A stretch of DNA of 64,000 nucleotides from an uncultured Actinomycetes bacterium (lineage in GTDB: Bacteria; Actinomycetota; Thermoleophilia; Gaiellales; Gaiellaceae), in assembly GCA_963825795.1 (NCBI GenBank), contig CAWGVD010000046.1:91329-155328 (forward strand). The letters run 5' to 3'. A model generated the notes under the pieces. The model did no database searches and was not told where the DNA came from. It saw only the letters and a program-made list of their open reading frames with translations. Below, piece after piece: positions 1 through 5,249 of this stretch. The translations under genes and the position numbers were made by a program. Every line of letters starts with the position of its first letter. Position 1 is the stretch's first letter.

Positions 1-665
1 CCCGGTTCGACGAGGGCGACGCGGTGCGCGTGCTCGGCCGGGTCGACCGCTTCCGCGACCGGCTGCAGCTCGAGATCCGCTCGCTCGAGCCGGTCGAGGA
101 TCTCGATCCGGAGACGCTCGCGCCCGCCCTGCGCCGCGACGGAGACGAGCTCGAGGGCTTTCTCGAGTTCCTCGCGGGCGAGATCTCGCACCCCGGGCTG
201 AAGGCGGCCGTCGGACGCTTCGTCGGCGACGACGCGCTGCGGGGTCGGCTGCGCGCACTGCCCGCGACCGTCGACGGCCATCACAGCTACGCGGGCGGGC
301 TGCTCGAGCACACGGTCGGCGTCTCGACGATCTGCCGCGAGGTGGCGCAGCTCCATCCCAGGCTGCGCGCCGACCTGCTCCTCGCCGCGGCGCTCCTCCA
401 CGACGTCGGCCGGACGGCCGAGCTGACGCGCGGGCCTGTCTTCAAGCCGACCGAGGAGGGCCGCCTACTCGGCCACGTCCATCTGGGCCTGCGCCTGATC
501 GAGGAGCGCGCCGCGCCGCTCGAGGCCGGAGTTCGCGCCGAGCTCCTGCACGCGGTCGGCTCGCACCACGACGCGCGCGCCGCGCGCACGGCCGAGGCCT
601 CGGTGCTCTACCACGCGAACCAGCTCGACGCGGTCGCAGCGACGCGACCCGTGCCCGAGGGCTAG
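1..665 (+). CDS. HD-domain phosphohydrolase (YhaM-like 3'-5' exoribonuclease family), 5' end outside window
   Basis: ORF 24..665. Conserved HD-domain motif (LLHDVGR) plus downstream His pair. N-terminal region resembles the OB-fold/HD architecture. The frame is open to the window start. Confidence 0.55.
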   Translation, partial: RFDEGDAVRVLGRVDRFRDRLQLEIRSLEPVEDLDPETLAPALRRDGDELEGFLEFLAGEISHPGLKAAVGRFVGDDALRGRLRALPATVDGHHSYAGGLLEHTVGVSTICREVAQLHPRLRADLLLAAALLHDVGRTAELTRGPVFKPTEEGRLLGHVHLGLRLIEERAAPLEAGVRAELLHAVGSHHDARAARTAEASVLYHANQLDAVAATRPVPEG

Positions 666-1036
666 TCGAGCTCGGCGACGAGGCCGGCGATCCGGTCGCG
701 GATCTGGCGCACGACCTCGATCGGCATCCCGGCCGGGTCCTGAAGGTTCCAGTCGAGGTAGCGCTTGCCGGGCAGCACCGGGCAGGCGTCGCCGCAACCC
801 ATGGTCACCACCAGATCGGCCCATTCGACGTCCTCGTCCGACAGTTGGTGCGGGACGCGGCCCTCGAGGTCGATCCCGAGCTCGCGCATCGCCTCGACCA
901 CCTCGGGATGAAGGTGAGCCTCTGCGTGCGAGCCGGCCGACCGCACCTCGAGCCCCGCCCGCTCCGCGAACGCCTGGGCCATCTGCGAGCGGCCCGCGTT
1001 CCCGATGCAGACGAAGAGGACCTTCTCAGCGGGCAA
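662..1036 (-). CDS. arsC: arsenate reductase, LMW-PTP (thioredoxin-coupled) type
   Basis: 124 aa. CIGNAGRSQMA P-loop of the low-molecular-weight phosphatase/ArsC family. Overlaps the arsR 3' end by 11 nt (operon). Confidence 0.8.
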   Translation of the reverse strand: MPAEKVLFVCIGNAGRSQMAQAFAERAGLEVRSAGSHAEAHLHPEVVEAMRELGIDLEGRVPHQLSDEDVEWADLVVTMGCGDACPVLPGKRYLDWNLQDPAGMPIEVVRQIRDRIAGLVAELD

Positions 1037-1403
1037 CCGTGGCCTCGGCCGTAGCGAGCACGAGCTCGGGCTGCGGCGAGCCTCCGAGCGCGAACGCGAG
1101 CGCTTCGACCGCCTCGGGCACGAGCCGGTAGAACGAGAACGTCTTCCGCTTCCGGGAGACCTCGATCAGGCCGGCCTCCCGCAGCACCTTGAGATGGTGC
1201 GAGATCGTTGGCTGTGAGAGCCCGAGCGAGCTGAACTCGCACACGCAGGCCTCGTCGCGGGATGCGAGACGGTTGACGATCGCGAGCCGCGTCGGGTCGG
1301 CGAGCGCCTTGAAGCGCGCCGAGAGGCTCTCGAACTCCTTCGGCTTCAGCGGCGGCGCCCCGGGCGCGCAACAGGTGATCGTCGCGAGCTTCTTCATTGA
1401 CAA
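1026..1403 (-). CDS. arsR: ArsR/SmtB-family metal(loid)-sensing transcriptional repressor
   Basis: 125 aa. wHTH motifs LADPTRLAIV and SQPTISHHLKVL. CVC metal-binding motif in helix 3 plus an N-terminal CC pair (CadC-like). TTG start at 1403, or ATG at 1397. Confidence 0.8.
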   Translation of the reverse strand: MSMKKLATITCCAPGAPPLKPKEFESLSARFKALADPTRLAIVNRLASRDEACVCEFSSLGLSQPTISHHLKVLREAGLIEVSRKRKTFSFYRLVPEAVEALAFALGGSPQPELVLATAEATVAR

Positions 1404-1433
1404 GCATCAATGTAACAGCTAGACGTTACATCG
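1397..1433. promoter_or_regulatory. divergent promoter region with perfect inverted-repeat operator TGTAAC-N8-GTTACA (1411..1430)
   Basis: Plus strand has TTGACA (1397..1402), a 17-nt spacer, then TAGACG, upstream of the small Cys-rich ORF. Minus strand has TTGTCG, 17 nt, then TACATT immediately upstream of the arsR start (leaderless-like). The palindrome overlaps both -10 regions. Confidence 0.5.
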
Positions 1434-1458
1434 ACAATCATCGATGGAAGGAGGCGTC

Positions 1459-1512
1459 ATGACGAGCTGTAACTGCGACTGCGGCCCGGACTGCGACTGC
1501 GACTGCTGCTAG
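1459..1512 (+). CDS. 17-aa Cys-rich peptide MTSCNCDCGPDCDCDCC (mini-metallothionein-like), divergent from arsR
   Basis: Not in the ORF track (<60 aa). ATG at 1459 is preceded by GGAAGGAGG (1446..1454). Eight Cys in CxC repeats. Coding DNA is a (GACTGC)n hexanucleotide repeat. Ends at a CTAG shared with the ychF stop on the other strand. Confidence 0.45.
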   Translation: MTSCNCDCGPDCDCDCC

Positions 1513-2430
1513 ACGTTGAAGCGGATGTTGAGGATGTCTCCGTCGGCGACGACGTAGTCCTTTCCCTCCAGCCGCTGTTGGCCGCGGCGGGCGGCCTCGG
1601 CGCGACTCCCCGCCTCGACGAGGTCGCGCCACGCAATCACCTCGCAGCGGATGAACCCGCGCGCGATGTCTGTGTGGATCGTCGCCCCCGCATCGAACGC
1701 GGTGAGGCCCTGCCCGAGCGTCCAGGCCCGCGTCTCCTTGTCCCCGCCCGTGAAGAACGTGAGCAGGCCGGCCGTCTCGAACAGGTTCGCGAGCACGCGC
1801 TCGAAGCCCGCAGGCCCGTCGCGGAACTCCGCCGCCTCCTCGGGCGAGAGCTCGGCCAGCTCGGCCTCCAGCTTGAGGTCGATGCCGCCGTCGCCGTTGA
1901 CGACCTGGACGACCGGCTTCGTCGTCAGCGGCGCGAGCTCCGGCGGGAGCTCCCGCTCGTAGGCGCTCAGCGGCCCGCCCGCCTCGACGTGCGCGAGGAT
2001 GCGCTCCAGCTCTGTCGACCTCGTCGCGTACGCGCGGGTCGCCGCCCTTCGCCATCGTCCGCACCCGCTCGAGGCGCTTCTCGACGTGGTCGCGGTCGGC
2101 GACGACGAGCTCGAGCCCGATCGTCTCGAGGTCGTGCGCAGGATCCGCGTCCGAACCGAAGCCGCGCAGCACTGCGAGCAGCGCGTCGGCCTTCCGCAGC
2201 TCCCCGAGAACGGCCGCGCTCAGACCGGGAGGGTCGACGAGCTTGACCGTGGCCGGCGTCGTCTTGGCCGAGCCCTCGACCTCGGCGATCGGCTCGAGCC
2301 GCTCGTCCGGAATCGGCGCGACGCCGACGTGCTCCTGCCCGTACGCGGTCTGCGAGACGCCCGTCAGGGCAGTGAAGAGCGTCGTCTTACCGGCCCCGGG
2401 CAGGCCGACGATCCCGACATCGAGCGGCAT
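1509..2430 (-). CDS. ychF: YchF/Obg-family GTPase, frameshifted and motif-degenerate (possible pseudogene or assembly error)
   Basis: N-terminal frame (2430 down to about 2010) has a Walker A motif (GLPGAGKTT) and the AKGGD region. The middle and C-terminus (TELERIL...LTTKPVVQVVN... to GFIRCEVI...GKDYVVADGDILNIRFNV) are in a different frame, ending at 1509. The FCTIEPN and GLGN motifs are missing. Confidence 0.5.
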
Positions 2431-2443
2431 CGCCGAGACGGTA

Positions 2444-3016
2444 CTACGGGCGGACGAGCTCTCTCTCGAGGGAAGCGAGCGCGCGGTGCTGGAGCGACTT
2501 CACGGCGCCTTCGGACTTTCCGAGGATCCCAGCCGTCTCGGCGTTCCCGAACCCGAAGAAGAACTTCAGCGTGAGCACCTGGCGCTGTTCGATCGAGAGC
2601 CGGTCGATCAGCTCCATCATCCCGAACTGGGCGATCGAGCCCAGCGCCTCCGCTTCGGCCGACGGCCCCTCGTCCCACTCCGGCACCTCGTCCTCCGCCT
2701 GCACCCTGCGCCCTGCCCGGAAATGGTCGATCGCGAGGTTGTGCGCGATCCGCAAGAGCCACGCGGAGAACGGCGCGGACTGCCAGCGGAAGCGGCCGAT
2801 CGACTCGAGCATCCGCAGAAATGTCTGCGTCGTGAGGTCCTCCGCGTCGTGGCGGTTGCCGACGGTGACGTGCAGGTAGCCGTAGATGCGGTCGAAATGG
2901 AGGAGGTAGAGCTCTTCGAGCGCCTTGCGGTCGCCTTCCTGCGCCCGCGCTACGAGGAAACGCAGGTCGACCGCTGCGCCGTGACCGGTTCTCGTCGCTG
3001 CCCCGTGCACCATCAC
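2444..3016 (-). CDS. ECF-type RNA polymerase sigma-70 family factor
   Basis: 190 aa. Region 2 and region 4 sigma-70 motifs (YLLHFDRIYGYL..., LSIEQRQVLTLKFFFGF...). No cognate anti-sigma gene downstream. Confidence 0.8.
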   Translation of the reverse strand: MMVHGAATRTGHGAAVDLRFLVARAQEGDRKALEELYLLHFDRIYGYLHVTVGNRHDAEDLTTQTFLRMLESIGRFRWQSAPFSAWLLRIAHNLAIDHFRAGRRVQAEDEVPEWDEGPSAEAEALGSIAQFGMMELIDRLSIEQRQVLTLKFFFGFGNAETAGILGKSEGAVKSLQHRALASLERELVRP

Positions 3017-3061
3017 TGAAGGTGGTGCCCGAAGAGGCGCGCCCTGTAACCAGGGACCTAG

Positions 3062-3292
3062 CTAGCCGCCGCTGAAGCCGACGCGGCCTTCGCGCGAATA
3101 CCGCTTCACGTAGACGACTCGCGCGAGCGAGATCGTGTAGCGCCCGTCCTCCGCCTCGATCTGGGCCGTCCCGCCCGAGGAGCCGCCGAGCGACTGCTCG
3201 AGGTCGTCCGCAACCGACGTCTGCACGTGCGCGCTCATCACCTGTCCGCCGTCGAAGCCGATCTCCAGCCGGATCCGGTCCTGGTCAGCCAA
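3062..3292 (-). CDS. DUF3107 family small protein (Actinobacteria-conserved)
   Basis: 76 aa, pattern IRLEIGF...TISLARVVYVKRY.... Confidence 0.5.
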   Translation of the reverse strand: MADQDRIRLEIGFDGGQVMSAHVQTSVADDLEQSLGGSSGGTAQIEAEDGRYTISLARVVYVKRYSREGRVGFSGG

Positions 3293-3689
3293 CGCTCACC
3301 AGCTCTGCGAGAACTCCGTGCACGGACTCAGGATGCACGAAAGCGACCTGCATGCCGAAGAGACCGCGACGCGGGACGTCGTCGATCACGTGCACACCCT
3401 GCCCCGCCAGGTCGGCAAGGCCACGTGGCAGATCGTCGACCGCGTAGGCGACGTGGTGCATCCCGGGGCCGCGTTTGGCGAGGAACTTGCCGACGGGCGT
3501 GTCTTCGCCGAGGGACGCGAGCAGCTCGACGCGGCTCTCACCCAGCCGGACCGCCACGGCCTCGACGCCCTGCGACTCGAGCGTGTCGCGACCCTCGACC
3601 TCTGCGCCGAACAGCCGCTGATAGGTATCGACCGCGTCGTCGAGGTCCTCGACGGCGACTCCCAGATGGTGGATCCCCTTCGCCCGCAC
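3285..3689 (-). CDS. methylmalonyl-CoA epimerase / VOC (glyoxalase) family protein
   Basis: 134 aa. IHHLGVAV and GMHHVAYAVDD motifs of the VOC family. Confidence 0.65.
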   Translation of the reverse strand: MRAKGIHHLGVAVEDLDDAVDTYQRLFGAEVEGRDTLESQGVEAVAVRLGESRVELLASLGEDTPVGKFLAKRGPGMHHVAYAVDDLPRGLADLAGQGVHVIDDVPRRGLFGMQVAFVHPESVHGVLAELVSVG

Positions 3690-3701
3690 GCGAAGAGGAT
3701 G

Positions 3702-5249
3702 CTATCCGTTGACCGGGGTTCTCCCGTCGGGCGCATCCTCGACACGCGCGAGCGGAACGACCCGGCCGACGGTCTCGCTCATGCTCGATTCGGGCTCGAC
3801 GTCGGACAGGAGCGCCATCATCTCGGCGCGGACGAGCGTCTCCTTCTCGAGGAGCGCCTCCGCGAGCCGGTCGAGCGCCGCTCGATGCTTCGTGATCAGT
3901 CGCACGGCCTCGTCGTAGGCGTCGTCGGTCAGACGTGCCTGCTCCTGGTCGCGAACGCGCTTCGTCTCCTCCGAGAGCGCGTAGTTGTCGGCGCGCATCG
4001 TCCGCGAGACGACGCCTTCGGCCATGCCGTACTCGAACACCATCGAGCGCGCGAGCTCGGTCACCTTCTCGAGATCGTTCGCGGCGCCGTTGGTGACGCG
4101 CCCGAACACGACCTGCTCCGCGGCGCGACCGGCGAGCGCGATCTTCATCCAGTCGATGAACTCCTCGCGCGTGTGCAGATAGCGGTCCTCCTCAGGGAGG
4201 TTGAACGTGTAGCCGAGCGCCTGTCCGCGCGGGACGATCGTCGCCTTCTGCACGGGGAAGCTCTGGCCCATCAGGTGCGACATGAGCGCGTGGCCGCCCT
4301 CGTGGTAGGCGAGGATCCGCTTCTCCTTCTCGGTCATGACGCGGCGCTGCTGGAGGCCGGCGATGACGCGCTCCATCGCGTTCTCGAAGTTCACGTGGTG
4401 GATGCGCTCCTGGCTCTCGCGGCCCGCGAAGATCGCCGCCTCGTTCGCGATGTTGGCGAGGTCGGCGCCGGTCAGGCCCGCGGTCTGGCGCGCGACCGCG
4501 GTCAGGTCGACGTCCGAGTCGAGCGGCTTCCCGCGCGTGTGCACCTCCAGGATCGCCTCACGACCTGCGAGATCGGGCGGCGAGACGAGGATCTGCCGGT
4601 CGAAACGCCCGGGACGGAGAAGAGCCGGGTCGAGATCCTGGAGTCGGTTCGAAGCGGCCATCACGATCACCTGGTCGCGGTTGTTGAAGCCGTCGAGCTC
4701 GACGAGCAGCTGGTTCAGTGTCTGATCCTGCTCGCGGTTGAAGCCGTGATTACTGCGGGCGGCGCCGACCGCGTCGAGCTCGTCGATGAACACGATCGCG
4801 GGCGCATCCTTGCGCGCCTGCTCGAAGAGCTTGCGGATGCGGGCTGCGCCGAGCCCGGCGAACATCTCGACGAAGGCCGAGGCGCTCTGCGAGTAGAAGC
4901 TCGCGCCGGACTCGCGGGCGACCGCCTTGGCGAGGAGCGTCTTCCCGGTCCCCGGCGGCCCGTGGAGCAGAATTCCCTTCGGCACGCGCGCGCCGAGCTT
5001 CGCGAAGCGCTTCGAGTCGCGCAGAAAGTCGACGATCTCCTCCATCTCGTCGCGCGCCTCCTCGAGCCCGGCGACCTCGTCCCACGAGACCGACGACTTG
5101 GAGGTCGGGTTGACCGACTTCGTCTTGACGCGCGGCATCACCTGCACCGTGCGCCACAGCAGGTAGATGATCATCCCGACCATCACGACCGGCAGCCAGA
5201 CCAGCGCAACAGCACCGATCGCGCTCAAGAGATGACCGATGTCCGGCAT
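3702..5249 (-). CDS. ftsH: ATP-dependent zinc metalloprotease FtsH (short form, single TM, no periplasmic domain)
   Basis: 515 aa. Walker A (GPPGTGKT) and second region of homology (AAA+ module), plus HEGGHAL zinc motif (M41 peptidase). One N-terminal TM helix. Confidence 0.85.

Follow-up and report, generated by a model that had tools for sequence, protein, structure and literature searches.

A candidate family of ultra-short, cysteine-rich peptides encoded divergently from arsR in Gaiellaceae and their relatives

Among the few bacterial metallothionein families, MymT and PmtA are small, Cys-rich, cytoplasmic proteins that are induced by metals and sequester them; MymT, a Cu(I) protein, consists of 53 amino acids (aa). 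PmtA has 70 aa, and SmtA has 56 aa, contains His and adopts a Zn-cluster fold (PMC12193353). The SmtB/SmtA system is laid out with an ArsR/SmtB repressor gene divergent from that of the small Cys-rich effector and with operators in the shared intergenic region. We describe here a locus with the same layout in a 64,000-nucleotide (nt) stretch of DNA from an uncultured bacterium of the Gaiellaceae (contig CAWGVD010000046.1; this whole stretch is called the window), in which an open reading frame (ORF) of 17 codons, the micro-ORF, is divergent from arsR. By analogy with SmtB/SmtA (PMC12193353), derepression by a bound ion would be expected. The divergent ArsR/SmtB arrangement was found to be kept in 20 further loci, and the peptides encoded there and in the window, together referred to as the family, probably represent an unannotated group of ultra-short metal(loid)-binding peptides. 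No description of ArsR-linked Cys peptides of 14 to 23 aa was found in the literature searched. The features that define the unit in the window are as follows.

1459..1512, plus strand: micro-ORF, translated as MTSCNCDCGPDCDCDCC followed by a stop codon (17 aa, 7 Cys)
1446..1454, plus strand: Shine-Dalgarno (SD) sequence GGAAGGAGG, 4 nt 5' of the micro-ORF ATG, read from the sequence
1026..1397, minus strand: arsR, ArsR/SmtB metalloregulator of 123 aa (PF01022, NF033788), divergent from the micro-ORF
1509..2430, minus strand: ychF, convergent with the micro-ORF and 3' boundary of its unit, with the stop overlap in CTAG
1509..1512: CTAG common to the micro-ORF stop (TAG, 1510-1512, plus strand) and the ychF stop (1509-1511, minus strand)

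An earlier note on this DNA had described a 17-codon ORF with 8 Cys; its length is correct, and the Cys count is not, since translation of 1459..1512 gives 7. The strong SD and the end at a CTAG shared with the convergent ychF stop, both claimed there, are present in the sequence, and a scan requiring an SD returned the micro-ORF as the single Cys-rich micro-ORF of the window. At about one third of the length of the known bacterial metallothioneins, the peptide is indeed well below the half that had been stated. The generic composition of metallothioneins, about 30% or more Cys arranged in CxC or CC, is found in the window peptide (7 of 17 residues) and in the family (39%). Unlike SmtA, the micropeptides have no His in any member, and their genetic context is arsenic (arsC, arsM and arsI) instead of zinc. 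They do not belong to the BmtA/SmtA family (PF02069, Metallothio_Pro), as no match to its profile was obtained, His is absent and the length of about 50 to 60 aa is not reached. They also differ in length from MymT and PmtA, to which the family scans found no similarity. When a 22-aa extended form of the window peptide was scanned, there was no match in Pfam-A (E ≤ 1) and no relevant match in NCBIfam (E ≤ 10).

The conservation of the micro-ORF was examined by using the ArsR protein as a query, which gave 160 loci, 80 from species-representative genomes and 80 from metagenomes; the distribution of the family is known here from these ArsR-anchored loci alone. The nearest relatives by ArsR were metagenome-assembled genomes (MAGs) of Gaiellaceae, Gaiella and Thermoleophilia. 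A blind scan found a Cys-rich micro-ORF in the slot divergent from arsR in loci L001-L008, L081-L087, L090-L092, L094 and L128. Over both strands of all the loci (723.5 kb), only 22 SD-preceded Cys-rich micro-ORFs were present, and 20 of these lay within the 200-nt slot divergent from arsR, in Gaiellaceae/Thermoleophilia MAGs and soil contigs; the remaining two (L043 and L047) were also in ArsR-linked loci. Where the identity of ArsR was at least 51% and usable upstream sequence was available, the micro-ORF was found in 19 of 21 loci, and in the other two the same slot, with the same operators, held arsI/cadI (L009) or arsM (L089). Thus, conservation next to ArsR orthologues, which the note had proposed to check by a tblastn-type search, was observed in 20 slot loci.

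The family, consisting of the 20 slot homologues and the window peptide, has 14 to 23 aa and 5 to 10 Cys per member, and 147 of its 375 residues are Cys. Its consensus is M-x(1-6)-CC[DE]C..D.CCG.GCC, followed by the stop. The C-terminal CC, and with it a run of consecutive Cys codons, is present in the window and nearly all members. Aromatic residues are restricted to a Phe in L008 among the 21 slot members; outside the slot, Phe occurs in L043 and Tyr in L047. An SD containing GGAG, most often AAGGAGG, precedes the ATG, GTG or TTG start by a few nt in 21 of 21 members. For two close pairs of equal length, the proportions of synonymous (pS) and nonsynonymous (pN) differences were computed and were 0.21 and 0.03 for L003/L087 and 0.67 and 0.03 for L005/L091. 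By these comparisons, the micro-ORF is under purifying selection.

TRF finds a period-6 array in the coding DNA of the micro-ORF (1472-1506; 5.8 copies, 72% matches), in agreement with the (GACTGC)n hexamer repeat described in the note. Its suggestion of a variable copy number is also borne out, as the count of CxC units differs between relatives and the length differences amount to whole codons or CxC units (L001 CDCNCDCGPDCDCDCCDCC and window CNCDCGPDCDCDCC, for example). This pattern would fit a hexamer repeat that expands and contracts. The ArsR of the window recurs without change in 18 public contigs. Among the five examined, four carry the micro-ORF with three synonymous changes and one Asp-to-Gly change relative to the window, and in the fifth (L162) a 1-nt insertion shifts its frame. 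Because the separate arsC call found in the other four is also missing from L162, the frameshift fits indel errors in that assembly; L162 is a long contig, and the region concerned is 2844-4070 together with the micro-ORF region. A gene call at the micro-ORF was made in none of the five, which confirms that standard ORF callers miss it.

It is conceivable that the micro-ORF is non-functional, that is, a chance ORF in the (GACTGC)n repeat, a side effect of bidirectional promoter activity or of antisense transcription into ychF, or an assembly artefact. The hexamer-repeat DNA, a transcript that would run antisense into ychF without a terminator, and the frameshifted copy in L162 could be taken this way. 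However, the ORF, its SD and its frame are kept where ArsR is only about 50% identical and the DNA differs, pS is far above pN, the neighbour is not always ychF, and independent short- and long-read assemblies agree, with L162 explicable by indel errors. The collapsed-repeat artefact that the earlier note had named as a possible refutation is likewise answered by the retention of ORF, SD and frame across diverged loci and independent assemblies. We therefore regard non-functionality as most improbable, and the micro-ORF is very probably a real, translated, ArsR-linked gene. As such, it would be a clean case of a conserved gene overlooked by genome annotation.

In mycobacteria, polycysteine small ORFs (sORFs) are leaderless, stand as first ORF at the head of Cys-metabolism operons and regulate in cis the genes that lie downstream (10.1101/834739). 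The micro-ORF resembles them in its actinobacterial source, its consecutive Cys codons, its conservation by position and the lack of annotation. It could accordingly be supposed that the micro-ORF is a Cys-responsive leader or attenuator, in which a shortage of thiols would be sensed by ribosomes that stall at Cys codons, and a gene downstream would be controlled in this way; apart from the precedent just cited, the sORF of L128, which stops 2 nt before arsI/cadI, speaks for this. Unlike the mycobacterial sORFs, the micro-ORF is SD-led and ArsR-linked, and usually nothing follows it. As judged from the sequence, it is not leaderless: the GGAG-type SD is universal in the family, and the operator candidate O2 lies upstream of the SD. 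In the window and 13 loci, the convergent ychF lies 3' of the micro-ORF, and the stops often overlap. In L006, L007, L086 and L094, the convergent gene is another one and/or the micro-ORF is followed by a strong hairpin (−41 kcal/mol in L086 and −32 kcal/mol in L094). Altogether, the micro-ORF is succeeded by a convergent gene or hairpin in the window and in the 18 slot loci whose downstream sequence was long enough to judge, with L128 as the only exception, and no gene on the same strand lies downstream in the others. In L047, moreover, the micro-ORF comes after arsM, not before it. An RNA element was also rejected because the fold of 1428-1560 was no better than those of shuffled sequences (z = −0.29), and an Rfam scan of 1200-1800 (E ≤ 1) gave no match. 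The attenuator model was rejected for the window because both properties of the mycobacterial sORFs fail there, the micro-ORF being neither leaderless nor the head of a Cys-metabolism operon, and for the family it is very unlikely. Since convergent genes or hairpins follow it, the micro-ORF in the window is, on this genomic evidence, a standalone gene, and the statement of the note that it cannot be a leader peptide, with nothing lying downstream, is upheld by the convergent ychF in the window and 13 loci.

The intergenic region between arsR and the micro-ORF contains a putative promoter and three palindromes.

1397..1425, plus strand: putative micro-ORF promoter, with −35 TTGACA at 1397-1402, a 17-nt spacer and −10 TAGACG at 1420-1425
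1395..1412, no strand: operator candidate O1, CATTGAcaagcaTCAATG, overlapping the arsR start codon and the micro-ORF −35
1411..1430, no strand: perfect palindrome TGTAAC-N8-GTTACA, bridging O1 and O2 and covering the −10 region
1429..1446, no strand: operator candidate O2, CATCGAcaatcaTCGATG, 3' of the micro-ORF −10 and abutting its SD

The near-consensus −35 reported earlier is present, and its TTGACA overlaps the arsR start codon (CAT, 1395-1397). This start, the ATG at 1397, is agreed on by gene callers and orthologues; a database look-up of the ArsR version that begins at a TTG at 1403 found no record. A consensus scan of 1000-2000 returned no sigma-70 promoter and no intrinsic terminator, so the promoter call is based on comparative conservation only: TTGACR-17/18-TA[GC]nnT is kept in the long-spacing class of relatives described below. 

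The note had regarded the TGTAAC-N8-GTTACA palindrome as the shared operator. It is indeed perfect at 1411-1430, unique in the window and without a match in 100 shuffles. As a conserved operator, it did not hold: it is perfect only in the window, in L001 (the closest MAG relative) and in near-identical strain contigs, and it is degraded or absent elsewhere. An alignment of the intergenic regions showed that the conserved element is instead the pair of 6-6-6 palindromes, CATYGA-N6-TCRATG, that flank it (O1 and O2). This motif has two matches in the window, against 0.43 expected. Its arms are kept and its spacer is free across relatives and strains, the strain variants altering spacer bases only, and O2 is kept directly 5' of whichever gene occupies the slot, be it the micro-ORF, arsI/cadI or arsM. 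Of the 160 loci, 96 have the core ATYGA-N6-TCRAT, those of Streptomyces, Mycobacterium and Nocardia among them, and it lies almost always within about 150 nt 5' of arsR. The pair falls into two spacing classes, 33-38 bp and 22-25 bp from start to start. With the −35 and spacer lying under O1 and the start-site region under O2, the arrangement would suit repression of both divergent units. A published operator for CgArsR, the As(III) sensor considered below, was not found in the literature searched. ArsR together with the candidate operator could serve as a biosensor part.

Some further details of this region were noted. An in-frame ATG at 1444 (MEGGV...) was rejected as the start of the micro-ORF; its bases belong to the O2 palindrome, and several relatives do not have it in the micro-ORF frame. 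A direct repeat of 10 nt without mismatch, GCTAGACGTT, is located at 1418-1427, the centre of the intergenic palindrome, and at 1508-1517, the micro-ORF/ychF stop, and TGTAAC appears for a third time as a half-site within the micro-ORF, at 1468-1473. The repeat and the half-site may be coincidental.

As to the ion that is sensed, the genes around the repressor and the repressor itself were considered. Next to arsR lies a second ars gene.

662..1036, minus strand: arsC, low-molecular-weight phosphatase-type arsenate reductase (PF01451, E = 3e-21), overlapping the arsR stop

Because of this overlap, arsR and arsC are probably co-transcribed; two arsenate reductase models, TIGR02689 and TIGR02691, were also matched by arsC in part and below their cutoffs. 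The window ArsR matched PF01022 (E = 1.1e-15) and NF033788 (85 bits against a cutoff of 55), which identifies it as a winged-helix HTH_5 regulator of the ArsR/SmtB type. Its cysteines are an N-terminal pair, Cys9-Cys10, and Cys51-Val-Cys53, and all four are invariant across the aligned orthologues; the CVC metal site, the N-terminal CC pair and the arsC neighbour that the note had listed are thus all present. In ArsR of the R773 type (type 1), the site is Cys32-x-Cys34-x-x-Cys37 in helix 3, and in that of the CgArsR type (type 3) As(III) is bound by the N-terminal vicinal Cys15-Cys16 and Cys55 of the partner subunit (PMC11868830). The window ArsR is not of the R773 type, as its CVC (EACVCEFSSL) has no third Cys at +3. 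The best match in the PDB was 6j0e (CgArsR), with the N-terminal CC aligned with Cys15/16; Cys55 falls in an insertion missing from the window ArsR, and Cys51-x-Cys53 is a few residues away.

The genes that replace the micro-ORF also concern arsenic. With the same operators and SD position, the slot gene of L009 encodes an ArsI/CadI VOC enzyme (NF041414, 166.7 bits against a cutoff of 116), and that of L089 is the arsenite methyltransferase gene arsM (NF008823, 300 bits against a cutoff of 263). In distant actinobacterial loci, the slot is again occupied by ArsI/CadI, ArsM or an ArsO-like flavoprotein. The note had seen in the locus the SmtB–SmtA regulatory logic. As to the divergent layout of repressor and thiol-rich effector, this is a fair analogy; the context points to arsenic more than to the biology of a Zn/Cd metallothionein, because arsC is in the arsR operon, arsI/cadI or arsM can occupy the slot, and CgArsR is the best-matching structure.

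The opposite possibility is that the peptide is strictly a metallothionein for Cd, Zn, Pb or Cu, with arsenic incidental and the repressor a divalent-metal sensor like CadC or CmtR. The N-terminal pair and the CxC of helix 3 do resemble the CadC alpha3N site, structures of the CadC type were among the PDB matches, and NCBIfam describes the ArsI/CadI family as one of heavy-metal resistance. A partial NCBIfam match links the regulator to the Rv2640c locus of M. tuberculosis, which neighbours cadI; the window ArsR is related to that family (NF041413) and is not an equivalog, scoring 67.4 bits against a cutoff of 155. On the other hand, arsC overlaps arsR, arsM is found in the slot of L089 and beside the micro-ORF of L047, the closest solved structure is that of an As(III) sensor, whose CC pair aligns, and no metal efflux ATPase or CDF gene lay beside the module in the loci inspected. 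A strictly divalent-metal function is therefore improbable.

Cys-rich sequences resembling the micropeptide are also attached to enzymes. Across L010-L160 (L014, L036, L134, L013 and L051, for example), the ArsI/CadI, ArsM and ArsO-like proteins very often have Cys-rich tails of the types CC...CC, GCxCGS and SSGCC; many of those in the distant actinobacterial loci end in motifs such as ...CC-x(8-20)-CC. In Streptomyces, Mycobacterium and other actinobacterial loci, they share the CC...CC composition, often the C-terminal CC, and the divergent slot with the micropeptides, and look like tethered versions of them; the difference is that the tails are enzyme appendages and the micropeptide is a free-standing gene product. 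A common origin of the micropeptides and the ArsI/ArsM tails is possible. The two micro-ORFs outside the slot are likewise near such genes or arsR. In L047, the micro-ORF (MPDLCECEYCTCETCDASC) directly follows arsM and has its own SD, and in L043 it (MTLQLFCCDDDCGCGDDCC) is part of an arsR-orf58-micro-ORF-hairpin operon. The ORF between arsR and the micro-ORF of L043 has 58 codons and contains Cys (MTRPDATDRDQCTHEVGCCDQGD...), and in the same locus (2973-3560) the N-terminus of arsR is apparently frameshifted, with MKTLSILPP in one frame and ACCTPLAAP... in another.

These tails bear on whether the peptide is a metallochaperone or feedback modulator and not a bulk sink. It would then pass As(III) or MAs(III) to ArsM, ArsI/CadI, a pump or ArsR, or buffer the inducer so that ArsR re-represses. 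Micro-ORFs adjoin arsM in L047 and arsI/cadI in L128, and the analogous CC...CC tails of the slot enzymes suggest that the peptide is a free-standing tail. ArsD is a described precedent: it hands off As(III), which it holds at sites made of vicinal Cys pairs, and its loci are, like those described here, ars loci under ArsR control (PMC12607644). Unlike ArsD, the micropeptide is so short that its folding would require a ligand, and no arsA or arsD was seen here; ArsD, with about 120 aa, is folded and is the partner of the ArsA ATPase. Moreover, the window and most Gaiellaceae loci have only arsR-arsC, with no adjacent arsM, arsI or pump. No partner can be named, and the sequence data do not separate a chaperone from sequestration. 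An exclusive chaperone or modulator role is thus possible and rather unlikely.

We favour, with moderate confidence, the reading that the micro-ORF is a standalone, monocistronic gene of a thiol-rich, Asp/Cys-rich micropeptide that is derepressed through ArsR and, alongside ArsC, binds As(III), perhaps also Cd or further soft ions, in order to buffer it or hand it off. That the peptide is translated, that ArsR represses its gene, which ion is the inducer and that metal(loid)s are bound are what we infer here from genomic data, and the mechanism could be as described below. ArsR dimers would bind to O1, at the micro-ORF −35 and the arsR start, and to O2, between the −10 and the SD, and this occupancy would repress both the arsR-arsC operon and the micro-ORF. 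Once Cys9, Cys10, Cys51 and Cys53 of ArsR have taken up As(III) or a thiophilic ion like it, the repressor would leave the DNA. The micropeptide would then be made, with As(III) or soft metals bound at its three Cys pairs or CxC runs. As(III) is held by three thiolates in ArsR sites (PMC11868830); with three thiolates each, about two As(III) could be loaded per peptide. The loaded peptide would act as a sacrificial thiol buffer or as a hand-off ligand, and it would matter most while ArsC produces As(III).

Several observations weigh against this reading. A free peptide of 14 to 23 aa may be short-lived in vivo. The peptides are of low complexity, so that the family alignment reflects common composition and position and not provable homology. 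The −10 of the window (TAGACG) is imperfect, lacking the final T, and the consensus promoter scan was empty. The CC and CxC of ArsR also resemble a Cd/Pb site of the CadC type, and CadC-like structures of Listeria and S. aureus were also among the PDB matches. Finally, the micro-ORF of L128 (MDCDCPCGPCPCDCDCGCC; about 465-525, minus strand), with its stop 2 nt before the GTG of arsI/cadI, also fits the role of an upstream ORF. This arsI/cadI has no evident SD of its own; because of this and the distance of 2 nt, translational coupling of the two is suggested for L128.

Short Cys peptides made of acidic residue/Cys repeats, such as phytochelatins and synthetic (Glu-Cys)n, and the 25-aa Cu-metallothionein of Neurospora bind As(III), Cd or Cu via thiolates. 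Phytochelatins are made enzymatically, (Glu-Cys)n is engineered, and the Neurospora protein is eukaryotic and Cu-regulated; (Asp-Cys)n is an alpha-linked analogue of (gamma-Glu-Cys)n. In chemical terms, the micropeptide comes closest to phytochelatin-like (acidic residue-Cys)n peptides, to the Cys pairs of ArsD and to the Cys tails of ArsI and ArsM. A broader interpretation, which we put forward only tentatively, is that the micropeptides are the shortest known gene-encoded metal(loid)-binding family: ribosomally made phytochelatin analogues of 14 to 23 aa, (Asp/Gly-Cys)n...CC, which in Gaiellales and some soil actinobacteria would be switched by ArsR for As(III) binding, would form a third defence beside efflux and methylation, and may have arisen from liberated ArsI/ArsM tails. 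If true, a far shorter family would be added to the few bacterial metallothionein families (53-70 aa), and ars regulons would include a sequestration-type arsenic response in organisms, the Gaiellaceae, that recur in the retrieved soil metagenome contigs. The peptides are short enough for direct synthesis for binding studies.

No arsenite pump was identified next to the window module. In L003, L004, L005 and L009, a membrane-protein-like ORF (ending ...AGVALISAG) adjoins arsR-arsC on the opposite strand; in the window, an HD-domain gene takes this position. The ychF of the window is split into two frames by one extra base near 2013, as compared with the 92%-identical orthologue of L001, and public contigs with the identical ArsR have it unbroken (306 aa); the break reflects either an indel in the assembly or a pseudogene peculiar to this strain. 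A CTAG stop overlap of convergent genes occurs at least twice in the window, at 662-665 (HD-domain gene/arsC) and at 1509-1512 (micro-ORF/ychF).

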